A stretch of 64,000 bases of DNA from Trypanosoma brucei (taxonomy: Eukaryota), in contig AL929603.2 in the NCBI GenBank assembly GCA_000002445.1, forward strand, positions 352,001 through 416,000, in the 5' to 3' direction. Positions 8,261 through 39,006 of this stretch are shown one piece after another. Both the position numbers and the translations under genes were made by a program. The notes under the pieces are model-generated. The model was not told where the DNA came from and ran no database searches. It worked only from the letters and a program-made list of their open reading frames with translations. Position 1 is the first letter of the stretch, and every line of letters begins with the position of its first letter.

Positions 8261-10252
8261 ATGGGTGCCTTTCCGTCTCATGATGCCCCTGAGCTCATAT
8301 ACTCAATGTTAGTTCTGCGTCCATCGACAAATTCTCAGGTTGAGGTTTGCCTGGTGCCTCTTCTGCCGCGTTTCTTCAATGATGGGCACAAAAAGGCGAA
8401 GAAGAAGCTCAATGAACTTCTCGCCAGCAAAGGAGCGCATCAATCGTCACTAGCGGCGTCACTTGCCCCTCGAGCCCCAGCGACTATAGCTCCAGGGAAG
8501 GTTCCAGATCAGGGAATCGGTCACGCCTTAGTGGACTACTTCATTTCCAGTACGGAGGGATCCTTTTTTGTAACCACAAAGGATGCCGTAGTTAGTAAAG
8601 TGGCCATACAAGCGGAGCAAGGTCAAAGGGAGAGGTCTGACATCAGCACTACTGGAGGAAGATCCGCACCAGGTACCGCCTCCACAGGTGAGACACAACC
8701 CTCCAATGCACCATCTCATACGGCGCATCATTCGTCATCCCACCAGGCAATGTCCAACTCTGTGCGGCCGGTGCCATTTGCCGTTTGTATTGTGGATTCG
8801 GATGTCTCCACGGGAACTCCGGGCACCACTGGAGGGTCCGCACAAGCGGCAGCCGCTAAGCACCATCATGTACATGCCAATAATGTTGTCCTTATCAAAG
8901 GGCGGCGGCTGCAACTTGTTGGCTTTATTGCATGTTGTATGGATCGCCCTGTGCGACACATGACCACGGCAAATCCTGTCAAACCACATGGAGCTAGCGG
9001 TGGGGCGGGAGCAACCTCTGGAGAGGGAAAGAAGCAAGGAATCCCTGTCTGTCTGGATGTTATTTTTGATGATACAGAGGCACATGGGTTCCTTACCGAG
9101 TCTGTAGTGTTGTTGGCATCATTTGCCTTCCGCAAGCAATTCTTGAATTGTTGTGCTCTTCACTTTCGGGCCGGGGATCCCGATGTGGAATCATCATTTG
9201 GGCGCCACATGGACCCCTTGCAGCTTCGACTAGTGATGAGGCATGACAACTATCGCATTTTACGCCTGTTTCATAGCCGGTACCCCCTGTTAGACATGGT
9301 CAAAGAGCTTCGCGTAAGCGGGGGCTCGTCGGCCCCGCAGTTCTCTCTCTATGAAAACGATGGAAATGAGGTTGGTTTAGAAGTGACGTTTGGTATGAAT
9401 TTTTTAACGCGGTGGATGCGGTTTGTGGAGAAGATGATGCACGTTGAGACGGTGGTTGGTAACCACATCCGTTGCGGTACCACCGCCATAATGTCGGAGC
9501 GAGATAAACTAATACAGGAGCGCAGGGACAGTGGCGCATTCCTGGAGGAGGAGGAGGATGATGAGCGAATCTTTGGGGGAGCCGTGTACGCCGTGTCGCT
9601 GAGGCGGTGGACTGCTGCAGAGAAGCAGGCGGTTCAGCAACAACAGCAAGTTCCATTGAGTGGAGCATCTCCCATGTATGTGTATCCCACTACCGCTGCT
9701 CCTGGTCAGTACTGGCCACAGATGTCCGTGATGATGGGGCAACCTCCAGGGTGGCCCACTAGTGTTGTTCCTTTGAGTGCTGCTGCTGCTGCACCGACGG
9801 CCGTGGCACCGGTGATTGGGCAACAACAACCATTTGTTATTCAAGCATCAGGGACGCGACCGCAATTGTACTACGCGTCGCCGCAACCGACTGTAAGTGG
9901 GAACGCCACTTTTGTTACCCAGAGCGGTATTCCGATAGTACAGCAAGCAGCGACGGCGTCTCCATTTGGTGTTGCGGCAACACAACCCGCCTCTGGGCAG
10001 CAGATCGTATACGTCATGCAGGGCGCCCAGGCAACTTCCGCTAGTGTTGCAGCCCCTACAGTTTCGGCTATGGCGCCTGGCATGACTCCTCAAGCATTTT
10101 ATTATCCCCAAACTACCGCCTACGCTGTTCCCTACTCTCCATACGGCTTTCAGCAGCAACCACAGCAACAATTGGTAACACAAGCGACTCATATTGGCAC
10201 TCAACAACAACAACAGCAGGTGACATCGGCGGGGCAAGTAGCTCAACAGTAG
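8261..10252 (+). CDS. Paralogue A of an unnamed kinetoplastid protein family (MGxxPS N-terminus, Cys-containing core, long Q/P/A-rich C-terminal tail)
   Basis: ATG start MGAFPSHDAPEL. Core motifs RPVPFAVCIVD, LVGFIACCMD and FLTESVVLLASFAFRKQF are shared with the ORFs at 15865 and 22878. The C-terminal ~200 aa are low-complexity Q/P/A-rich. Confidence 0.75.
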   Translation: MGAFPSHDAPELIYSMLVLRPSTNSQVEVCLVPLLPRFFNDGHKKAKKKLNELLASKGAHQSSLAASLAPRAPATIAPGKVPDQGIGHALVDYFISSTEGSFFVTTKDAVVSKVAIQAEQGQRERSDISTTGGRSAPGTASTGETQPSNAPSHTAHHSSSHQAMSNSVRPVPFAVCIVDSDVSTGTPGTTGGSAQAAAAKHHHVHANNVVLIKGRRLQLVGFIACCMDRPVRHMTTANPVKPHGASGGAGATSGEGKKQGIPVCLDVIFDDTEAHGFLTESVVLLASFAFRKQFLNCCALHFRAGDPDVESSFGRHMDPLQLRLVMRHDNYRILRLFHSRYPLLDMVKELRVSGGSSAPQFSLYENDGNEVGLEVTFGMNFLTRWMRFVEKMMHVETVVGNHIRCGTTAIMSERDKLIQERRDSGAFLEEEEDDERIFGGAVYAVSLRRWTAAEKQAVQQQQQVPLSGASPMYVYPTTAAPGQYWPQMSVMMGQPPGWPTSVVPLSAAAAAPTAVAPVIGQQQPFVIQASGTRPQLYYASPQPTVSGNATFVTQSGIPIVQQAATASPFGVAATQPASGQQIVYVMQGAQATSASVAAPTVSAMAPGMTPQAFYYPQTTAYAVPYSPYGFQQQPQQQLVTQATHIGTQQQQQQVTSAGQVAQQ

Positions 10253-14945: not shown

Positions 14946-15864
14946 TATCCCTTTCTTGTGCCATCGTCATCGCAACACTATAAACAATAGGGAACGTGTG
15001 TAAACCTTTTCTCTATCTCTCTCTATCTCTCTCTTTTTTATTATTATTATTTTCTTTGTTCCATACAAACACACAAGCCGACTTAACATAAGGCAGTTGG
15101 GGCGGAAGCCGCGGGCACCACCACTGCTGTAGTTGTTTTTTTTTAGTTTTTCTTTGTTCTTTCGTGTCTTATCTTATTTTAATTTACTCTTGTTTTTTGT
15201 TTTAGTGCTTTTTTTCTTTGATTTATTGTTCTTGTCGGCACCGTTATTGTTATTGTTGGTGCTACTCCCAGTGGTGCATTACTTTGGACGAGGCAAAGTA
15301 GTCCATTTTTTTTTAAAAATTATTCCTCCTCTTTGTTCTCTTTCTTTTATTTAATTCATATTTTTTTTTACTATTTGTTACCGTTATTATTTGTTTATTT
15401 GTTGTTTCCATTTATTTTAATTTACTGTCCTGTCATTCACTTTCTTTACGAAGGTGTAAGTTGGGAAAAAACGTGCGCACGGGAGAGAAACAGAAATACA
15501 AATACATACAGAAGTTAGGGGAGAAATAAATTAAAGCAAAAAAGAAAAAAAAGAGAAGAAACAACAGAACGAAACAGAAGAAAAACGGAAGGGGAAAAAG
15601 AACAGAATTAAGTGACAACACAGTGAGAAGAAGGAGTGAAAGCGAAAAAGGGGGAAAACAAACAGTAACAAAGCAAAAGAAAAAAAGAGTGAAATTCTCT
15701 GCTTAATAAAAAGCAAGTGTATATAACATATATATCTGTATATATATATATATACCTATAATTTGTTTATTTATTTATATATTTGTCTTGTTATTGTTAT
15801 TGTTATTTTTTTTATTTTTGATTACTTTGCCATTGATATATATATATATATATATTTGTTAACA

Positions 15865-17622
15865 ATGGGTGGTATTCCTTCACGCGACGCGCCTACTACA
15901 TTGTTTTGCCTTCGGTACGGCACCCATGAGGTAGGACTCATTCCCCTCGTGTACCGCTACTTTCACAGTGATAACAAGGAGTTGCGAGAGCAGTTTGTGC
16001 GGGTGCGTAATGATCCGAGCATACGCTACAGCTTCATGCGTAGCCCCGAGTATCGTATGGATGAAATACCAAAGAAAGTGTATACAGAGAAGACTCTGGA
16101 CAAGTTCCTTGATGTTATCGATGAATCACTTTACGATTCCACAAGTGCGATGCTCGCAGATGAAGACGCGCCATTCCGGCCCGTTCCTTGCGCCGTTTGC
16201 TTCGTGTATGTTAATGGTCGTGAGGGATCTGATTGTTTTTCATTCTATGGCCGCCGCATTAATATCATTGGTCACTTTGGCTGTTACGAATCCGAGGATA
16301 GGGTTAGTGAAGGCCCATGCCTCCACGCCCGAAAAACTATTTTGAAGGCTGCGGGTGATCGCACGCTGGAGCGTGTTGTTACACTGGCCGCTATGATGCT
16401 CAAAGGGGAATTCTTCCGCGCCGTTCAAACGGTGTGCCCCACGCGGGACCCACTGGCAATGTTAAAGCGCCGACTGAATCCCTTGATACTTGTCGCCTCT
16501 ACACCATGGAACAGTTACCCCACCTTGAAGTTTGTTTACGATACCGCCGTTATTGCATGGGCGTATGGAAAGGAAGTCGTTGAGGCGGATCCGCCGCGCC
16601 TCTCCATGTACGAAATTGAACAAAGCGGTGAGGGTGGCTTATGTATGCGAGTCAGTGGCTCGGTGCTTTTGTGGGCTGTTATGCGCGTGTGTGAGACACT
16701 TACGCTTTCTGCAGTGCGTGGATCCTGGGAGCAGTACGTGCTGGATGACTTTGAGATGCAGCAGAAGGAAAAAATTGTCTCCCAGTGGCTTTCCACAAGC
16801 CCACATGTAAACAGTTTCCTCGGGTCAGAAACATTCACCGACCTCGTACAGAAACGACTGGCTACTCTTCTGCGGGAAGTTGTGCGCGCCCGTGAGACCC
16901 CGACAGAAGACACAACGCTGTGGGGTGAATCACAGGAGTATAGTCATGATGGAAAACTCTACCGTATCTTCAATTCCCCAACTTGCGGCCCTTTCCTTGC
17001 AACTGTGAAGAAGAAGGTGCCTAAGCGGGGAAGCAGCGCCAACACCGGCAATGCAAGTATTACAAGTGCAACTGGTGGTGACTCAGCGAGTGACCGGCGC
17101 TCCAGTGGTGTTCACCTCACGGACTCACCCAGCAGTGGTGGAGAAAATAAATCCCGCAGCTCCGGTCAGGGGAACCCCCGATCCAAAAACAATGGCAACC
17201 AACCTTCTGGTTTCCCCGCACACAACAATGCTGGTCAGCCCCCGCAGTACAAAGATGCTGTCAATAGTGTTCTCCAGTCGCAGTTCGCAACAGCTGCGCA
17301 GCGTGTCGTGTATCAAATGCCGCCTCCCGTCGGCAAAACCTCTCAGGGCCAAGTGTCCGTTTCCCCTCAGATGTCACCGCAGTTTGTACCGATGTTTCAA
17401 ACTGCACCTCCGCCACCCATGCAGCAATTTAGCGTTCCATATGTTGTAATGGCGCCACCCGAGTCACAGCCGCAGCCGCAGCCGCAACCTCAACCTCAAC
17501 CACAACCCCAAATGGGAATGGTGTTCCCAAGCACTGTTGCAAATTATGTGCTTTTGCCAGATGGGCGGGTCGGAATGATCAACGCACCAGCGCCCCCCAC
17601 TATGGGCTTCTGGGGTCAGTGA
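15865..17622 (+). CDS. Paralogue B of the same family
   Basis: The track ORF starts at a TTG at 15763, inside a TA repeat. The first in-frame ATG at 15865 gives MGGIPSRDAP, which aligns with the N-termini of paralogues A and C. Shared motifs are GLIPL, PVPCAVCFVY, IIGHFGC and GDRTLERV. The C-terminus carries a (QP)8 run and is P/Q-rich. Confidence 0.75.
   Translation: MGGIPSRDAPTTLFCLRYGTHEVGLIPLVYRYFHSDNKELREQFVRVRNDPSIRYSFMRSPEYRMDEIPKKVYTEKTLDKFLDVIDESLYDSTSAMLADEDAPFRPVPCAVCFVYVNGREGSDCFSFYGRRINIIGHFGCYESEDRVSEGPCLHARKTILKAAGDRTLERVVTLAAMMLKGEFFRAVQTVCPTRDPLAMLKRRLNPLILVASTPWNSYPTLKFVYDTAVIAWAYGKEVVEADPPRLSMYEIEQSGEGGLCMRVSGSVLLWAVMRVCETLTLSAVRGSWEQYVLDDFEMQQKEKIVSQWLSTSPHVNSFLGSETFTDLVQKRLATLLREVVRARETPTEDTTLWGESQEYSHDGKLYRIFNSPTCGPFLATVKKKVPKRGSSANTGNASITSATGGDSASDRRSSGVHLTDSPSSGGENKSRSSGQGNPRSKNNGNQPSGFPAHNNAGQPPQYKDAVNSVLQSQFATAAQRVVYQMPPPVGKTSQGQVSVSPQMSPQFVPMFQTAPPPPMQQFSVPYVVMAPPESQPQPQPQPQPQPQPQMGMVFPSTVANYVLLPDGRVGMINAPAPPTMGFWGQ
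17467..17512 (+). repeat. (CAGCCG)/(CAACCT) hexanucleotide repeat encoding (QP)8 in paralogue B
   Basis: Sequence: cagccgcagccgcagccgcaacctcaacctcaaccacaaccccaa. Confidence 0.8.
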
Positions 17623-22877: not shown

Positions 22878-24872
22878 ATGGGAGGTGCGCCTTCTCGGGA
22901 GGCGACAGTTGTGTACTCGTATCTGCGAGGTACGTATGAAATTGGCCTCATTCCCCTTACAAGTGCTTTCTTTGGCCGGCCGTCAGGACGGGGGGAACAT
23001 GAAGGGGAAAATGTGCTACGGGGGCATTTCTTACAGATGCGGGAGGATCTCTTCGCGGCCTGTACACTCCCAACCCGAAACAAAGTGCTCTCATGGACAG
23101 AAATCGTGCCCAATCGATTTACGGGGGAGGACCTTGACGCGTTTTTGGAAATTGTGGACAAGCGGCTCTACCCAACAAATGCGGCAATGGTAGCAGATAA
23201 AAATTCTCCACTTCTCCCGGTCCCATGTGCTGTTTGTCTTGTCTGCAAAGATGGTCGGGAGCGCCGTGGCAGTTTTCGCTGGCGCGGGCGGAACATTGTC
23301 ATCATCGGTTACTTTGGATGCATGGATGAAAAGCTTGATGCGGCTTTCAAAACAGAGAAACGCACGCCACGCCAGGGGATGTACAGCATCACTGCCGCTG
23401 TATTTCCCTCTATTGGTGATCGTACGTTTGACCGCGTTCTTGCCTTAGCACCAGTGATGCTTCGGGGGCAGTTTGTGGGATCTGTGTTGCAACTCCGTAG
23501 GGGAGGAGGGGAATTCGCAACGCCCTTGAGTGAGCGTGGGGAAATGGTTGATGTCTCTAGTGAGGCTCCTTCGCTCGGAGCGGGAATTGGTGGAGTGGTA
23601 GGGCAATCAGATGGATTGATTCATGAGGATTCTGCAGTTGACAGCGCCTTCGAAATGTTCGTGGAGCGCGTCTCCCAGATGTCTGTATTCGTTGAGGTGG
23701 TCTCGGATAACTACTCGTCACTGAAGTCTCTAGTGGAAAATGTTGCCTTCATCCAGATTCATACACAGGCGGAACCTAAACAGTGTACGCTTGATCTTCC
23801 TCCAATCGTTCAGAACGCCTTTAATCGCACTACAACTGCGAGCAGTTGCGAGAAGAAAGCTGACGCGGAGGGTCACCATGCAGAAAAGTCGCCTCCACAA
23901 CGTTCATCTGCCATGGAACAGGGGTCTTCTTGTTGCACCGTGCAAGGAGTAAGCTGCTCGTTGGAGCGCGATGATTTAACCGATCTGTCCAGTGTGGAGC
24001 CTGAAGGTTCATCTCACTTAAGTAAAGTGCCAACGGAGGATGGTGGTAGTTTTCACTTCTGTACAGAGATAGTTCGTGTTCATTTCAACGAGAGATATGT
24101 GTCCCTAGCCATCCAGTGGCTCTCAAGTTTCTTCCGAAAACCAACCTTGCTTGAGAATGGTTATTGGGTACACTACTGCCTGAAAAAGGAAGAGGAAGTG
24201 ATACGCAGAATACTCTGCCATCGCGATACTATTGTCTCCGGTTGGCGAACGTCTCACCCCGAACTCGCTAATCAATACATGGGTGACGGCACGGACAAAC
24301 TACTGGAGCACGTACGGATCCTTCAGCACGAATTACAACAAGCCCGCAAGGCTGCAGAAGAACCTACACTGCGTAAAAAAGCCAGTACGCCTCCCACTCT
24401 GCCGTGTCCGAATACCACTTCAATGGCAGTGTTGGCACCACCCCCTCCGCCTCATGTGATGCCGTACGCCGTGCCTCCTCTTCCGTCACCGGTTTATTTT
24501 GTTCAACAGCAACCTGTGGGAAACCCCATGTTTGTGTCGTTGCTTCCTTTTCAGCAAGTGCAGCAGGTTCCACAAGTGCAACAGATCCCACAATTTCAGC
24601 AGGTGCCGCAAATTCAGCCACTGCAACAGATTTCGCATGTGCAGCAGATCCCTCAATTGCAGCAAACCCAACCGGTACAGTCGATATCGCATGTTCAGCA
24701 GATTTCGCATGTGCAACCGATTCATCAAGTGCAGCAAATCTCACATGTGCAACCGATGCCATTGTACCACCTCCAACCACCTGAATTACAACAGCCCTCG
24801 GTTTGTTATCTTCCCTTTGGGGATGGAGGAGCTCTACCCCCAAGTTATGTCATTCCAAGCTCGCTGTCGTAG
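22878..24872 (+). CDS. Paralogue C of the same family
   Basis: ATG start MGGAPSREATVVYSYLRGTYEIGLIPL. Shared motifs are PVPCAVCLVC, IIGYFGC and GDRTFDRV. The C-terminus has degenerate heptad-like repeats (QQISHVQ / QQIPQFQ). Confidence 0.75.
   Translation: MGGAPSREATVVYSYLRGTYEIGLIPLTSAFFGRPSGRGEHEGENVLRGHFLQMREDLFAACTLPTRNKVLSWTEIVPNRFTGEDLDAFLEIVDKRLYPTNAAMVADKNSPLLPVPCAVCLVCKDGRERRGSFRWRGRNIVIIGYFGCMDEKLDAAFKTEKRTPRQGMYSITAAVFPSIGDRTFDRVLALAPVMLRGQFVGSVLQLRRGGGEFATPLSERGEMVDVSSEAPSLGAGIGGVVGQSDGLIHEDSAVDSAFEMFVERVSQMSVFVEVVSDNYSSLKSLVENVAFIQIHTQAEPKQCTLDLPPIVQNAFNRTTTASSCEKKADAEGHHAEKSPPQRSSAMEQGSSCCTVQGVSCSLERDDLTDLSSVEPEGSSHLSKVPTEDGGSFHFCTEIVRVHFNERYVSLAIQWLSSFFRKPTLLENGYWVHYCLKKEEEVIRRILCHRDTIVSGWRTSHPELANQYMGDGTDKLLEHVRILQHELQQARKAAEEPTLRKKASTPPTLPCPNTTSMAVLAPPPPPHVMPYAVPPLPSPVYFVQQQPVGNPMFVSLLPFQQVQQVPQVQQIPQFQQVPQIQPLQQISHVQQIPQLQQTQPVQSISHVQQISHVQPIHQVQQISHVQPMPLYHLQPPELQQPSVCYLPFGDGGALPPSYVIPSSLS
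24590..24765 (+). repeat. Degenerate ~21-nt tandem repeat (consensus near CAGCAGATTTCGCATGTGCAA) inside the 3' end of paralogue C, about 8 copies, encoding QQISHVQ / QQIPQFQ units
   Basis: Repeating CAGCAGAT(T/C)(T/C)C(G/A)CA(T/A)(G/T)TGCA units are visible in the sequence, with a matching periodicity in the translation. Confidence 0.7.
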
Positions 24873-33542: not shown

Positions 33543-33579
<37 letters not shown>

Positions 33580-33709: not shown

Positions 33710-36700
33710 ATGGTTTCTAAAGAGGAGAATGCGAACATCAAAAAGGGGGAGGAAAGCGACGCATATTTGCAGGAGCGTGGGATAAATAATATTATCGAGA
33801 ACCTTTTGCACGATATCACAAAATGTAGACCGGATGATCACTTGGAGTTTATGAAAGAGTGGTTGGCGACTCGAGAAACTGGAAAAAAAGAATTTTCTGA
33901 TGGGAATGAAGCGAAGCAGATGATCGAATCACCACTTGAACGCGAGGCGACAGTTGGGGAAACGAGTGAATTCATTTCGGAAACAGTTCCCGAATTTGCC
34001 TTTTTCCAACCCGTGAAGAAACCATCAACGGTGTCGTGGGCGCTGGGTGCACGCGGTGTTGACAGCAGTCGTGCATTATTTACCTCCTCCAGAAAATCTC
34101 CGCAACCAATCGACTCGGTTAACACCACATCATCATCTTCAGGCAGCTCGGCACTTCAAAACAATTTAAGTGTTGCTGCTCAAGGCGTTTCAATGTGGGT
34201 CCCTTCCGCTGCTCCTCTTAAGGCATCGCCAGCAATTCCATCCAATCCATTACCTTTATCACCCACAACATCAGAAGGGCTCGTGAGTTGTGGAGAGCTG
34301 CCGTCGTCAGTGAAAAAAATAATAGAAGGAGTGCGGGGACTGTCGCCAGCCGACCACACAGCAGTAATAGCGTTTATTGACGGTTTGGCTAACAGAGCAG
34401 CAACCACACGATTAGGAAGGAGAAAGTTGTCAAATACGCGGGGATCATTCGGGGTTAATTTCAACGTTGATAGTTGTGGTCCCACCATGAGCGAGGGAGC
34501 CGTGCCACCATGTATTAGTTTGTTAGTGGATGATGACGGTAATGTGGGAGGGGAACGTAAACTCTCTTCGGTTCAATTACAACAATTAGTTGGCGATGCC
34601 TTAACAACAAGCATGATTGCAACTGGGGAAATATTCATGGAGGAGGAAAGAGCGGGTCAGTTGTCGGCCTCCACCACCCAAGGGGCGAGCACATTAGGAA
34701 GGAGGGTGAAAAAAGGAAGTAACTTGCAATTGGCACGTTTTACCGATTGTTTTTCCATGAGTGATCAGATTCTTCCTGGTTCGAACGGCGGCGTCGGCAG
34801 CGGCTCGGGTCCCAATGACGGAGCAACGGATTTGTCGCAAATGTTTTCGAGTGTTGATGAGTTTGCTGCCGTTCCAGTTAGTTTTATTCAACAATATATG
34901 CAACACAGTCGGCTCTCCTCAACCGTTAGTAGGGTTGATAGCGAGTACTCTTCGGGGGCGACCGTCAGCAGTGAGGATGAGGTAAGTGTGTTGCGTAAAG
35001 CTTTTCGGGCATGTAAGCGCTTCTCCGACTATAGCGAAACAGAAATAGAGGTACTCGCTCGTAATGCGCAAAGGTTGGAACTGCTTGCTGGTCACACATG
35101 TAACTTCAAGGACTCCATTTTCTACGTGCATAGTGGTTTGCTCCGCGTAGAGAACAATGAAGGTGTTCTTCGTGAACTTCCGGCAGGAACCTTCCTTGAT
35201 GCTCAATCCTGCGAGCAGCTTAATGATGCTAGGGAGCCGCTCGAGGTGCGTGCAGTATCTGATGCACTAGTTTTGATGTTGAAGGACGAGGCATTGGGAA
35301 CCATTCAGGAGAACGAAAAAAAACTGAAAAAACGGATGTTCGTAAGATGCCTGCAGAAGTCACCGCTTTTTGCAACAGTCCCGCTGAAACTTCTGAAAAA
35401 CATAGCCAATTATATGCATGTGCGAACGGTGGTCCAGGGAAAGGTATTGTTACGGAAAGGAGAGCATGTGGATTGGCTTTCAGTAGTTATCAGTGGCACG
35501 GTTAGTAGAGTAGTAGCCGGTGGCAATGGGAATCATGAAGTATTGCCGCAGAATAAGCAGAAAGGTGGCCCATCATCCTGTGCTGCTCCGTACATTTTAC
35601 CACCCGAATCCCAGAGCGGATTTGAGTTTGGTGAGCTTGAACTTCTGTTTAACTCGCCGATGCTTACGGATGTTGTTGCAACGACACCGGTAACTCTGGC
35701 ACGAGTTTGCACAGCATTTGTACACTCACTGCTACCCCACCAAATAATCAACGATATGAAATACGCTGTTGCTACCAATCCATCAGCTGGACCTCTTTTG
35801 ACCATAGCACCGGATGCAGTTCGTCACTCAGTTAAGATGTTTATGGAGCATTACTGTCAGTCAAAACGGTTGGGTGGAAGCCGACTGCGCAAAAGAATTA
35901 GTGTTAGCTCAACCGGGACAAATTCTACAAGAGGATTTGCAGATAGCGTCAGATGTGGAGTACTCGCATCCGGAGCCAAAGCGAGTGGCGGAGCAAACAA
36001 TCTCAAAGTGAGTTCGGCGGGAGAGATTGTGTATGCTGGAAAATGTAATTATTACCGCTTTCCTATAGCTGCTCTTGGGTTGGGGAACACAGTAGTGGTT
36101 GCCGTTGTATCGGATGGTACAATTATCCGCTGGAATGATAGCGCCGAGCGCATCACGGGGTTTTCGAGGCAGCAAGTGCTTGGGCACAGCGTCTTCTCTT
36201 CACTCACTACCGATTCTGCCCGGCGCTCCATGCGTGAGCAGTTGAAACTCGTGCGAAACGTTGCTGGGAACTGGAACCAGTACGTCAGTGCGGGTCTTTC
36301 TTCTCCACAAGTGTATCGTTTTCGTCAGGCGTCTGGAACACACTCCGTTGGGTTACTTTTGAGTGTTATTCCTTCTTCTGCGGGGTCCAATGAAGATGTT
36401 TTGTTACTTGTCGGGCGTGAAGCGGATAACAATGCCATGACAAGTTACGTTGAGGATACCACCCGGTGGTTGAATGACGTTCTGCGGCCGCAGCTGTCGG
36501 CGTTCCGTAAACGTGTGTGTGAATATGAAGAAAGGAAGTGGAATATTACTTTGGAGGAAGGCGCAAAGCTTCATGGCTATGTGGAGGCGTGTAACCAACT
36601 TATGGACCGTTACATGCGCCTTGCTAACCTAAACAAACATTCAGTAGATGCTCTGTGGAAACCGGTGCGGATGCAAAATGTGTTACGACAGTTTCTGCAG

Positions 36701-38938
36701 GAGGTGACACCTCATGTACAGCGGGCTGGGAACAAGCTTACCACAGACGTTGTGGCAGGGCCCAAGGGCGAGGTATTTCTTCATGTGGAATACGTGCTGG
36801 ATGTACTGCGTGGAATGGTACTTGATGCTAACAAGAATAGACCCAACTATCATATGCATATCGTTGTTGAGGCTGTTTTGCCCACCACTATGCATCAGGA
36901 TAGTACAACAATGCCCTGCCAGGGTGAAAAGTCCACTTCCTGTGACTTGGCATTTCACTCCGTCTTGGATCAATCGCGAGTGAGTCTCGACACACCCCAC
37001 TGCACAACATCGCAAATAACCGCGAGTGAAGACAGCATTCGACAACGCTCTGCTCACTCTCCCCGGCAATTAAGTAAATGGCCCTCATATATGCAGCTTA
37101 TTCGGTTTATATTTACGATTAGCGAAAGTGAGTCCGGCCTTTCGATGGCGAATGATAACACCAGTGGTGGGGCAGCTACCACCCCAAGTGGTGAAGTCCC
37201 GCGTAGCAGCAAAATTCATCATAGTTTTTATGCAGGAAAGGAATGTGGAGACCTTGTTGCTGCGATGGGAGGTGAGGTTTTTTCCGAGCAACGTGGAATG
37301 AACGGTTCGGGTCATTGTGTTACGGTAGAACTACCGCTATTACCGACGCCTTGGGAAGAGGAGGACGACGAAGATGAGGCACCTACATCTTCTACTACAG
37401 GACCGCCATTTGCTGTTATTCTTGCTGACAAGAATGAGAAGGAGCGCAACAGTGTCTGTAAATTGTTGTGGGCACGTCGGCACCCTGTTTTTTCTGTATC
37501 GTCATTGTCGGAAGTGATGATGAGGATTGAAAGCCCGGACATTGGTCTTCTCATTATAGATCCGTGTCATTTAGATATGACAGAGGGGGAAAGCAAGACA
37601 TTTGCCAAAGCTCCCTACCCATTCAACATGGAACATGGGGGAAATCATTTCGTTGTCCTTATTTACACCGAAGACTTCGACGACTGGAGGGTGCAAAAAA
37701 TGAAGAAGTGCAGTCACGTGATTGAGTTGCCCAAGCCAGCAACTACTTCACTGCTTCACTCCACTTTGTATGAAGCGGAGCGTATGGTTATTCGTGTGCG
37801 AGAGTACGAGGAGCGTGTGGCTCAAATGAGGTCTGCCTTTCGTGAGTTCCAAGCTGAGAGGTATGAAATGGGTAAAGTATTGGGCAGAGGATCGTATGGT
37901 GAGGTTTATGAAGTCGTTGATCGACTCACAGGTGGAAAGTTAGCCGTAAAGCGCATGACTCTTAGCGATGGTTTATTGGCTGCAGATGTTGCTGAGGAAT
38001 TTCTGTCTGTGACATCTATGCGGCATAAAAACATGATTCATTACTTCTATTGTGAGCAAGAGAGTGAGACAGTGCTGCGGTTATATATGGAGTTGGCATC
38101 TGGTGGGACTCTTAAAGATAAGATCCGTCAACATGGTGGACCGCTTCCGCTCCCAACTGTTGTGCAATACCTTGAGGATCTTTGTGACGGACTCGCTTAT
38201 ATCCACTCCAATTTGTTCGTGCATGGGGATATTAAAACTGCGAATGCGCTAGTTGATCAATATGGTCGTGTTAAAATTGGTGATTTTGGTACCGCAAAGC
38301 GTCTCAAACGAAAATCGGAAAAACTTTACAAATTTGTCGGAACCCCGCGTTTTATGGCACCCGAGCTCATTAACGCGGACGCCACACAGGGACATGGCTA
38401 CGATCAAAAGGGAGATATTTGGTCACTTGGATGTGTTGCTTTGGAGTTAGCGACGGGGAAACCACCATTTTGGCATATTGAAGAGGCACAAGGTATAGGT
38501 ATATTCAACTTCCTGATTAATTTGAAGGAAACACCAGATTTGTCGATAATCGAACATAGCGATCCTGACTTTTATGCATTTGTGAGGAGGTGCCTCCATG
38601 TTGATCCCAAGGAGCGACCAACAGCGCAGGAGTTATTGACAAGTAATCTCTTTCAGCGTGCGGGGACGAGTGTGAGGGATATGAGGTTGGCGCAGCAAAT
38701 ACAAGCTGCAACGAAGTTACATGAATATGCGGCGCTTAAGGAAGACAATAGTGACGATGAGAATGACGATGACGATGACGATGAAGATGATGATGATGAC
38801 GATATGTTCGTGGAGTGTGATTTTCCGTTAGTGTTCTCTGGAGTTGGCACATTTCCAAATGGCGACCAAAATGTTGCGACGAGTAACCGTGGCAATATTG
38901 ATAACGAAAAGAAAGGAACTGCAAAATTGAGTGGGTGA
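33710..38938 (+). CDS. Giant multidomain Ser/Thr protein kinase (1742 aa): RIIa-like docking domain, two cNMP-binding-like folds, PAS, histidine-kinase-like core, receiver-like domain, STE-type kinase, poly-Asp tail
   Basis: ATG start. Kinase subdomains are clear: LGRGSYGEV (Gly loop), LAVKRM (VAIK), HGDIKTAN (catalytic loop, non-RD), KIGDFGTAK (DFG), GTPRFMAPE (APE). Other domains are listed below as separate features. Confidence 0.9.
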   Translation: MVSKEENANIKKGEESDAYLQERGINNIIENLLHDITKCRPDDHLEFMKEWLATRETGKKEFSDGNEAKQMIESPLEREATVGETSEFISETVPEFAFFQPVKKPSTVSWALGARGVDSSRALFTSSRKSPQPIDSVNTTSSSSGSSALQNNLSVAAQGVSMWVPSAAPLKASPAIPSNPLPLSPTTSEGLVSCGELPSSVKKIIEGVRGLSPADHTAVIAFIDGLANRAATTRLGRRKLSNTRGSFGVNFNVDSCGPTMSEGAVPPCISLLVDDDGNVGGERKLSSVQLQQLVGDALTTSMIATGEIFMEEERAGQLSASTTQGASTLGRRVKKGSNLQLARFTDCFSMSDQILPGSNGGVGSGSGPNDGATDLSQMFSSVDEFAAVPVSFIQQYMQHSRLSSTVSRVDSEYSSGATVSSEDEVSVLRKAFRACKRFSDYSETEIEVLARNAQRLELLAGHTCNFKDSIFYVHSGLLRVENNEGVLRELPAGTFLDAQSCEQLNDAREPLEVRAVSDALVLMLKDEALGTIQENEKKLKKRMFVRCLQKSPLFATVPLKLLKNIANYMHVRTVVQGKVLLRKGEHVDWLSVVISGTVSRVVAGGNGNHEVLPQNKQKGGPSSCAAPYILPPESQSGFEFGELELLFNSPMLTDVVATTPVTLARVCTAFVHSLLPHQIINDMKYAVATNPSAGPLLTIAPDAVRHSVKMFMEHYCQSKRLGGSRLRKRISVSSTGTNSTRGFADSVRCGVLASGAKASGGANNLKVSSAGEIVYAGKCNYYRFPIAALGLGNTVVVAVVSDGTIIRWNDSAERITGFSRQQVLGHSVFSSLTTDSARRSMREQLKLVRNVAGNWNQYVSAGLSSPQVYRFRQASGTHSVGLLLSVIPSSAGSNEDVLLLVGREADNNAMTSYVEDTTRWLNDVLRPQLSAFRKRVCEYEERKWNITLEEGAKLHGYVEACNQLMDRYMRLANLNKHSVDALWKPVRMQNVLRQFLQEVTPHVQRAGNKLTTDVVAGPKGEVFLHVEYVLDVLRGMVLDANKNRPNYHMHIVVEAVLPTTMHQDSTTMPCQGEKSTSCDLAFHSVLDQSRVSLDTPHCTTSQITASEDSIRQRSAHSPRQLSKWPSYMQLIRFIFTISESESGLSMANDNTSGGAATTPSGEVPRSSKIHHSFYAGKECGDLVAAMGGEVFSEQRGMNGSGHCVTVELPLLPTPWEEEDDEDEAPTSSTTGPPFAVILADKNEKERNSVCKLLWARRHPVFSVSSLSEVMMRIESPDIGLLIIDPCHLDMTEGESKTFAKAPYPFNMEHGGNHFVVLIYTEDFDDWRVQKMKKCSHVIELPKPATTSLLHSTLYEAERMVIRVREYEERVAQMRSAFREFQAERYEMGKVLGRGSYGEVYEVVDRLTGGKLAVKRMTLSDGLLAADVAEEFLSVTSMRHKNMIHYFYCEQESETVLRLYMELASGGTLKDKIRQHGGPLPLPTVVQYLEDLCDGLAYIHSNLFVHGDIKTANALVDQYGRVKIGDFGTAKRLKRKSEKLYKFVGTPRFMAPELINADATQGHGYDQKGDIWSLGCVALELATGKPPFWHIEEAQGIGIFNFLINLKETPDLSIIEHSDPDFYAFVRRCLHVDPKERPTAQELLTSNLFQRAGTSVRDMRLAQQIQAATKLHEYAALKEDNSDDENDDDDDDEDDDDDDMFVECDFPLVFSGVGTFPNGDQNVATSNRGNIDNEKKGTAKLSG
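33758..33880 (+). other. RIIa-like dimerisation/docking domain (aa 17-57)
   Basis: The stretch LQERGINNIIENLLHDITKCRPDDHLEFMKEWLATRE resembles the PKA RII N-terminal DD helix pair (e.g. ..[30 protein letters not shown]). Confidence 0.5.
34982..35749 (+). other. Two tandem cyclic-nucleotide-binding-like folds (aa 425-680); the second retains FGELELL but lacks the phosphate-binding Arg
   Basis: Domain 2 reads FEFGELELLFNSPMLTDVVATTPVTLARV. It has a canonical beta-barrel/PBC layout with Glu present, but the PRAAT Arg is replaced by PMLTD. Domain 1 is more degenerate (FLDAQSCEQL). Confidence 0.55.
36032..36409 (+). other. PAS domain (aa 775-900)
   Basis: The stretch VVVAVVSDGTIIRWNDSAERITGFSRQQVLGHSVFSSLTTDS ... 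VGLLLSVIP...DVLLLVGRE shows the classic PAS sensor pattern. Confidence 0.65.
36443..37348 (+). other. Degenerate histidine-kinase core: DHp-like helix with His replaced by Asp, plus HATPase_c-like N-box and G2-box (aa 912-1213)
   Basis: WLNDVLRPQLSAF matches the H-box sHELRTPLnAi, with Asp where the phospho-His sits. VRMQNVLRQFLQEV matches the X-region. HVEYVLDVLRGMVLDANKNRPNYHMHIVVE matches the N-box (RL.QVL.NLl.NAiKyT..G.I.V). GDLVAAMGGEVFSEQRGMNGSGHCVTVELPLLP matches the G2/G3 region (GLGLaIv..lve.hGG.i.v.S..G.Gs.F.f.lPl). These are by-eye matches only. Confidence 0.45.
37400..37744 (+). other. Receiver (CheY-like REC)-like domain (aa 1231-1345)
   Basis: FAVILADKNE matches beta1 and the acidic pocket. 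GLLIIDPCHLDMTEG matches beta3 with a phospho-acceptor-position Asp. VVLIYTED matches beta4 with the conserved Thr. HVIELPKPA matches beta5 with the conserved Lys-Pro. Confidence 0.45.
37862..38659 (+). other. STE/MAP3K-like Ser/Thr kinase catalytic domain (aa 1385-1650), followed by a poly-Asp tail at 38747-38803
   Basis: All core kinase motifs are present. GTPxxMAPE is typical of the STE group. HGD replaces HRD. The acidic run DDENDDDDDDEDDDDDD is encoded by GAT/GAC repeats. Confidence 0.8.

Positions 38939-38974: not shown

Positions 38975-39006
<32 letters not shown>

Follow-up and report, generated by a model that had tools for sequence, protein, structure and literature searches.

Introduction

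In yeast the Sln1-Ypd1-Ssk1 relay leads to the kinases Ssk2 and Ssk22, and in plants ETR1, which combines a histidine kinase-like region with a receiver (REC) domain, leads to the Raf-like kinase CTR1. Both are cases in which a receiver controls a mitogen-activated protein kinase kinase kinase (MAPKKK, or MAP3K) in trans. In DgcR, PleD, NtrC1 and RssB, dimerization of the receiver alters the register or the proximity of the output domains. The present analysis concerns a receiver found in cis with such a kinase. It lies in a 64-kb stretch of Trypanosoma brucei DNA (contig AL929603.2, positions 352,001 to 416,000), here called the window, directly ahead of the catalytic domain of the protein kinase Tb927.1.1530. 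An initial annotation, made from the sequence alone, had proposed a receiver-like domain at this place. On the evidence of fold and homology, positions 37412-37738 of the window do encode a true CheY-type receiver. The best reading of the region from its PAS domain through DHp-like and HATPase-like domains to the receiver is that of a fossil hybrid histidine kinase module placed ahead of an STE Ser/Thr kinase domain.

The annotation had also described the lineage as one thought to lack two-component signalling, in agreement with a survey whose count of histidine kinases was zero for both T. brucei and Leishmania infantum (Kabbara et al., 2018; PMC6324907). To be counted in that survey a protein had to carry two or more of three Pfam domains, HisKA, HATPase_c and REC (PMC6324907). 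Given this requirement for two Pfam domains, the family of Tb927.1.1530 would fail the filter. Searches of the literature, with subscription journals and InterPro/TriTrypDB annotations outside their coverage, returned no earlier account of a receiver or a histidine kinase-like module in trypanosomatid kinases.

A receiver ahead of the kinase domain

The peptide on which the annotation was based is in frame at 37400-37744 and corresponds to residues 1231-1345 of an open reading frame (ORF) of 1742 codons. Taken singly, the T. brucei sequence gives no match to Response_reg, HisKA or HATPase_c in Pfam even at E ≤ 10, and its receiver segment matches no sequence in the PDB. The only match of residues 1198-1378 in Pfam and the PDB, to SBDS_N at E = 0.05, is noise. 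The gathering threshold of Pfam Response_reg (PF00072), 30.2 bits, is reached neither by the T. brucei segment nor by its best-scoring relative (E = 1.2e-5). From sequence, the homology of the T. brucei segment to receivers is visible at the profile level only.

Relatives were collected by an exhaustive HMMER search with residues 760-1390 against 1.84 billion representative sequences. It returned 488 proteins at E ≤ 0.001, about 35 of which align through the receiver-like region. A profile made from an alignment of 30 sequences over this region (A1) was run against every PDB sequence and matched known receivers over their full length: the REC domain of RpfC (3m6m_D) at E = 7.7e-8 and that of a Chaetomium hybrid histidine kinase (8phn_A) at 1e-7. 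Response regulators and NtrC1 followed at 1e-6 to 1e-3, many of them near 1e-6. When the 30 relatives were scanned singly, 15 matched Pfam Response_reg at E ≤ 1, the best at 1.2e-5, and no other family was matched by more than four. An AlphaFold2 (AF2) model of the domain is a (βα)5 structure with a predicted local distance difference test score (pLDDT) of 86 and a predicted template modelling score (pTM) of 0.80. The CheY-like spacing of strands and helices that had been proposed is thus borne out by a CheY-like flavodoxin fold. The domain was, on the other hand, drawn too short: ended at 37744, it leaves out the fifth helix (Table 1).

The same segment could be some other domain of flavodoxin-like or Rossmann-like type whose likeness to CheY is fortuitous. 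A single sequence with no Pfam or PDB match would fit that explanation, as would the modest Foldseek E-values of the model, about 6e-4. The A1 match at 7.7e-8, however, is specific to receivers, Response_reg is found in half of the relatives, and the domain follows directly upon a DHp-CA module, as it does in hybrid histidine kinases. Because of the specificity of the profile match and of this position the segment is read as a receiver; a chance resemblance is hardly credible.

One position within the domain differs between sequences of T. brucei and its close kin. Residue 1293 (37586-37588), at the start of α3, is Gly here (TEGESK) and Glu (TEEESK) in P0002, a 90% cluster representative from a Logan assembly; the difference is a polymorphism within Trypanozoon.

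The active site of the receiver

The register of the active site was taken from the hidden Markov model alignments, from the ends of the strands in the AF2 model and from a table of alignment columns over the 30 relatives. CheY D12 corresponds to D1240, and this column is Asp or Glu in all 30. CheY D13 is a ligand of Mg2+. Its equivalent in T. brucei is K1241, and only 8 of the 30 relatives have an acidic residue there; the column holds K, R, N, S, G, T, P or Q in 21 and a gap in one more. Arg is found in five other orthologues of the Trypanosoma clade, Gly in T. congolense, and Asn or Ser in Phytomonas and in the large orthologues presumed to belong to the Leishmaniinae. The acidic pocket claimed for the domain is in register at the first of its two positions and carries a Lys at the second, so that it is half present and its completeness had been overstated.

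CheY D57, the phospho-acceptor, is D1284, immediately after β3, and CheY K109-P110 is K1342-P1343, with Lys in every relative and Pro in 21 of 30. The profile alignments place both, together with T1320 on β4, at the conserved positions of receivers, as had been claimed. T1320, the equivalent of CheY T87, stands at the end of β4 in the model and is aligned with the Ser or Thr of RpfC and 8phn, but the column is Thr or Ser in only 13 of 30. Because a Thr is found one column earlier in many of the outgroup members, this register is uncertain by one residue in either direction. Whether the acceptor Asp had been kept or replaced by Glu among orthologues had been raised as a question: it is Asp in 29 of 30, Asn once (in Papus) and never Glu. 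A substitution of the type found in plant pseudo-response regulators (PRRs) is therefore ruled out.

A CheY carrying D13K together with Y106W is a constitutively active variant (bioRxiv 10.1101/781468). K1241 is a natural Lys at the same position.

These residues bear on a rival explanation, in which D1284 is a working phospho-acceptor, charged by a non-canonical donor, and its phosphorylation turns the STE kinase on or off. The donor might be the HATPase-like domain next to it, working with no His intermediate; it might be an HPt protein or histidine kinase encoded elsewhere in the genome and not recognised as such; or it might be a small-molecule acyl phosphate. The arrangement would be analogous to that of yeast, in which phospho-Ssk1 controls the MAPKKK Ssk2. 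The retention of Asp and Lys, the Thr of T. brucei and an acidic residue at every D12 position are all consistent with this idea, but in the Trypanosoma orthologues D13, the ligand of Mg2+, is replaced by Lys or Arg. Further evidence on it comes from the domains upstream.

A histidine kinase-like module upstream of the receiver

A family alignment of the region from PAS to REC (A2), used as a profile against the PDB, matched the DHp-CA cores of ShkA (6qrj, 1.2e-9), 7p8e (1.9e-9) and ZraS (2.6e-9). Further matches were to 5c93/4u7n, GacS, the CA domains of WalK and ETR1, RetS, DivL and phytochrome A, and the C-terminal part of the profile matched REC domains. An AF2 model of residues 890-1387 consists of a helical hairpin, an α/β sandwich and the receiver, with a pLDDT of 65 overall and 70-90 in the ordered parts. 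Its best Foldseek match was again ShkA (6qrj, 9.3e-9), followed by GacS, ZraS, RetS, HK853 and DivL. In alignment and model alike the receiver is C-terminal to the CA domain, as it is in hybrid histidine kinases.

The histidine itself is missing. The family motif LsdvlkpqL aligns with the H-box LSHEFRTPL of the hybrid kinase 6qrj, and the position of the phospho-His is therefore Asp923 in T. brucei. This position is Asp or Glu in every family member aligned in A2, and Asp923 might act as a phosphomimic. A2 contains no conserved His, and Pfam HisKA was found neither in T. brucei nor in the relatives scanned. A His near the sequence HVE in α2 of T. vivax and T. rangeli was considered as a substitute and rejected, as it is Tyr in T. 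brucei and its position is not conserved.

Decay of the CA domain is uneven. The T. brucei domain keeps the Asn of the N-box and an MGG motif in A2, has lost G1 (DxGxG) and G2, and is interrupted by two long disordered inserts. Several relatives exceed the gathering score of Pfam HATPase_c: the diplonemid P0056 with 56.7 bits, P0035 with 39.9, P0041 with 38.7, P0028 with 33.4 and a T. rangeli paralogue, P0033, with 31.9. P0035 also has a sub-threshold match to Response_reg at the expected place.

For the view that D1284 is a working phospho-acceptor, the near-canonical HATPase_c domain of P0056 is a point in favour. Yet no member of the family has a His at the H-box, the G1 and G2 motifs of the ATP lid are lost in T. 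brucei and its domain is unmatched by Pfam HATPase_c, and surveys report no histidine kinases in the trypanosomatid genomes concerned (PMC6324907). We regard a working acceptor in T. brucei as unlikely. The suggestion in the initial annotation that the domain could act as a pseudo-receiver is better supported, by the Lys, Arg, Asn or Ser at D13 in the orthologue group and by the Asp or Glu at the phospho-His position upstream.

The link to the kinase domain

In every one of the 30 relatives, diplonemid or trypanosome, the receiver Lys and the leading Gly of the kinase Gly-loop (37733-37885, residues 1342-1392) are exactly 50 residues apart. Within the receiver the loops vary by up to 32 residues, and the distance from the D57 to the K109 equivalent ranges from 48 to 80. 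In the AF2 model α5 runs almost straight into strand β1 of the kinase. Its heptads resemble those of a coiled coil, with 11 of 13 a/d positions hydrophobic in one register, and structural neighbours in which a long α5 likewise enters an output domain include DgcR, PleD, NtrC1 and RssB.

The catalytic motifs of the kinase are complete: GRGSYG, LAVK, HGDIKTAN (residues 1505-1512, 38222-38245), DFG (residue 1525) and MAPE. It is a non-RD kinase, having HGD in T. brucei; most kinetoplastid relatives have HCD and diplonemids HRD.

It might be supposed that the receiver is a decaying relic, a folded spacer left by an ancestral fusion, with control of the kinase residing elsewhere. The neighbouring CA-like domain of T. 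brucei is indeed decaying, with its large inserts and lost motifs, and the T. brucei receiver is too divergent for Pfam. Against this, purifying selection has been strong all the way from diplonemids to trypanosomes: R1256, H1258, K1342 and E1357 are invariant in A1, and C1250, W1254, V1260, D1284, L1340 and R1374 nearly so. The spacing to the kinase is absolutely invariant, and the domain is retained in proteins that range from 1,500 to 4,500 residues. A mere relic is thus a very unlikely explanation.

Distribution and paralogues

Among the relatives that align through the receiver-like region, the named ones belong to T. vivax, T. congolense, T. rangeli, T. melophagium, Phytomonas, Bodo saltans, the prokinetoplastid Papus and the diplonemid Artemidia. 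In the source databases none of the names given to relatives goes beyond "protein kinase", "PAS fold" or "CRP-like cAMP-binding protein". The fusion in cis of a receiver or hybrid histidine kinase remnant to an STE kinase is restricted to Euglenozoa. The family architecture is two cyclic nucleotide (cNMP)-binding domains, PAS, a DHp domain without the His, a HATPase-like domain, REC and the STE kinase.

Among trypanosomatids there are two groups. The first, with the degenerate pocket, contains Tb927.1.1530 and LmjF20.0770, which are paired as orthologues, and assigned to the STE group, in the supplement to the kinome survey of Parsons (2005; PMC1266030). The second (P0028, P0033 from T. rangeli, P0054 and P0073 from Phytomonas) has a PhoB-like ED pocket together with the Asp and the Lys, a chemically complete site. 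We infer that it is the group of LmjF15.1200, which has no T. brucei orthologue according to the same survey (PMC1266030). LmjF15.1200, a cNMP-binding and PAS-containing STE kinase in that survey, was itself considered as the orthologue of Tb927.1.1530 and rejected because of the pairing with LmjF20.0770. Orthologues P0011-P0018 (P0015 from Phytomonas, the others presumed Leishmaniinae) are giants of 2,292-4,541 residues, compared with 1,742 in T. brucei, and carry long low-complexity inserts within the CA-like domain.

The full ED/D/K set of the second group is a further point for the rival in which the Asp is a working phospho-acceptor. More broadly, kinetoplastids and diplonemids may keep a functional phospho-Asp switch that needs no His, charged by the HATPase-like domain or by some donor as yet unrecognised, and directly gating a MAP3K-like kinase upon binding of cyclic nucleotides or PAS ligands. 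Judged from its sequence, the complete pocket of the LmjF15.1200-type paralogues would make them the most plausible place for such a switch. We consider this quite unlikely; if true, a lineage believed to lack two-component pathways would possess a new eukaryotic one, contained in a single chain.

Leishmania mexicana has phenotypes for members of both groups. Null mutants of LmxM.20.0770, the orthologue, are depleted at pH 5.5 (bioRxiv 10.64898/2026.09.15.751656), and LmxM.15.1200, the paralogue, is needed in sand flies (PMC7618733). Because of these fitness phenotypes, one at low pH and the other in sand flies, the prediction set out below can be tested in existing mutant collections.

A proposed role for the receiver

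We favour, with moderate confidence, the reading in which a fossil hybrid histidine kinase module contains a receiver that has become an atypical, phosphorylation-independent element of allostery or dimerization, relaying changes in the sensors to the kinase. The receiver has probably been reused as a switch that does not depend on phosphorylation. The T. brucei module would no longer take part in His-to-Asp phosphotransfer, because it has no His, no acidic residue at D13 and a decayed ATP lid. A cluster of Lys1241, Asp1284 and Lys1342 may hold the receiver in one conformation, and a receiver so locked would be nature's counterpart to CheY D13K, which is constitutively active. Conformational changes in the sensors upstream, cNMP-binding and PAS, would then be transmitted by the DHp-like bundle and by the α4-β5-α5 face of the receiver. 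From there, if the model is a guide, they would continue along a rigid α5 coiled coil of fixed length, and this dimeric relay may set the relative position, and hence the activity, of two kinase domains.

Several points weigh against this interpretation. A phospho-acceptor Asp and a Lys that are nearly invariant are what would be expected if phosphorylation still mattered, and the paralogous LmjF15.1200-like group has a chemically complete ED/Asp/Lys site. It is from the model of a monomer that dimerization, a coiled coil and a salt-bridge cluster are predicted. The equivalent of T87 is uncertain by one residue. The analysis covered the 64-kb window, and an external phosphodonor such as an HPt protein or acetyl phosphate was not searched for in the T. 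brucei genome.

A whole hybrid histidine kinase module, with a well-preserved receiver, survives inside STE kinases across Euglenozoa. The phosphorylation-independent reading offers a structural hypothesis for the control of a MAP3K-like kinase in trypanosomes by cNMP-binding and PAS sensors, in a field, that of trypanosome cyclic nucleotide effectors and environmental sensing, which is poorly understood. It singles out a few residues, K1241, D1284 and K1342, and the length of α5. It would also be a natural case in which both a receiver and a histidine kinase have become "pseudo" forms, with a D13K-like change built in.

The gene and its surroundings

The product of the ORF (Table 1) is identical to the T. 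brucei TREU927 "protein kinase, putative" XP_001218855.1/CAJ16132.1. A phosphopeptide of Tb927.1.1530, AGQLSApSTTQGASTLGR, has been reported from bloodstream forms (PMC2716717) and is found within the ORF. No T. brucei kinase with a cNMP-binding domain is listed in Table 2 of Parsons (2005; PMC1266030). With its Pfam cNMP-binding stretches, Tb927.1.1530 is a possible candidate for a cyclic nucleotide effector.

Table 1. Features of Tb927.1.1530 in the window (positions are those of the window).
Feature	Residues	Positions	Strand	Basis
Whole gene Tb927.1.1530, STE-group protein kinase	1742 in all	33710..38938	+	ORF and exact protein match
Best-scoring cNMP-binding stretch	468-530	35111..35299	+	Pfam cNMP_binding, E = 5.7e-10; 3 stretches reported
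PAS domain core	796-855	36095..36274	+	Pfam PAS_9 and PAS, E ~1e-7
DHp-like helical hairpin	911-972	36440..36625	+	AF2 helices 22-52 and 59-83 (model numbering)
Degenerate H-box RWLNDVLRPQL, Asp923 at phospho-His position	919-929	36464-36496	+	Family profile vs 6qrj
Degenerate HATPase_c-like (CA) domain, two disordered inserts	983-1212	36656..37345	+	AF2 α/β sandwich, Foldseek, profile
REC core, β1-β5	1235-1343	37412..37738	+	Profile, AF2, column table
REC key codon D1240	1240	37427-37429	+	
REC key codon K1241	1241	37430-37432	+	
REC key codon D1284	1284	37559-37561	+	
REC key codon T1320	1320	37667-37669	+	
REC key codons K1342-P1343	1342-1343	37733-37738	+	
REC helix α5, 34 residues	1346-1379	37745..37846	+	AF2 helix 127-160 (model numbering)
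Protein kinase catalytic domain	1385-1647	37862..38650	+	Pfam Pkinase, E = 9.9e-59

Each of the 12 ORFs in the window that reach 250 codons lies on the + strand, the arrangement to be expected of a polycistronic unit in a trypanosome. The coding sequence of the kinase is flanked by dinucleotide repeats, (AT)17 upstream at 33543-33576 and (TA)13.5 downstream at 38980-39006; within it, (TGACGA)7.5 at 38752-38796 codes for an acidic D/E tail. Three ORFs of about 620-660 codons (8261-10252, 15763-17622 and 22878-24872) have no Pfam match. The first and third both begin MG..PS, a possible N-myristoylation signal, and their similarity is marginal (BLASTP E = 0.07). By Pfam the other neighbours (1241-2962 and 42788-63179, all +) include a HEAT-repeat protein resembling PP2A-A, a member of the tubulin-tyrosine-ligase family, a double AAA ATPase, SCO1/SenC, a large TruD-domain protein of 1523 residues and a DEAD-box helicase, and one, also on the + strand, has a weak match to Tubulin_3 that is below threshold (24.1 vs 30 bits).

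Comparison with known systems

The best matches in profile and in fold are the receivers of hybrid histidine kinases, RpfC (3m6m), Chaetomium HK3 (8phn) and Caulobacter ShkA (6qrj). The order DHp-CA-REC is shared, and Asp and Lys-Pro are in register, as is the Thr to within one residue. Tb927.1.1530 differs in having Asp923 in place of the phospho-His, Lys at D13 and eroded motifs in the ATP lid, and in the cNMP-binding domains before, and the eukaryotic STE Ser/Thr kinase after, this module in cis. Pseudo-histidine kinases such as DivL and RetS, and the histidine kinase-related domains of phytochromes, keep the fold without a canonical phospho-His relay, and match the upstream module. They are bacterial or plant proteins, and none is joined to a eukaryotic protein kinase domain through a receiver.

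With the atypical or pseudo-receivers, among them plant PRR/APRR/TOC1 proteins, RitR and FrzS, the domain shares a REC fold that has been kept while the chemistry of phosphorylation is compromised; RitR and FrzS are among the structural neighbours of the model. In plant PRRs the acceptor Asp has become Glu and a CCT domain is present. Tb927.1.1530, by contrast, has retained the acceptor Asp but not the metal-binding one, and has a protein kinase as its output. The long α5 helix that enters an output domain is common to DgcR, PleD, NtrC1 and RssB, which are among the top structural matches. These proteins are activated by phosphorylation of the Asp, and their outputs are GGDEF, AAA+ or PP2C-like domains; that of Tb927.1.1530 is a protein kinase.

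The Ssk1 and ETR1 systems share with Tb927.1.1530 the pairing of a two-component-type receiver with an STE11/MAP3K-like Ser/Thr kinase, and the REC domain of Ssk1 (5kbx) and the CA and REC domains of ETR1 (4pl9, 1dcf) are among the matches. In those systems receiver and kinase are on separate polypeptides, and in yeast there is real His-Asp transfer. In Tb927.1.1530 the sensors, the histidine kinase-like module, the receiver and the kinase are parts of one chain with a fixed helical linker.

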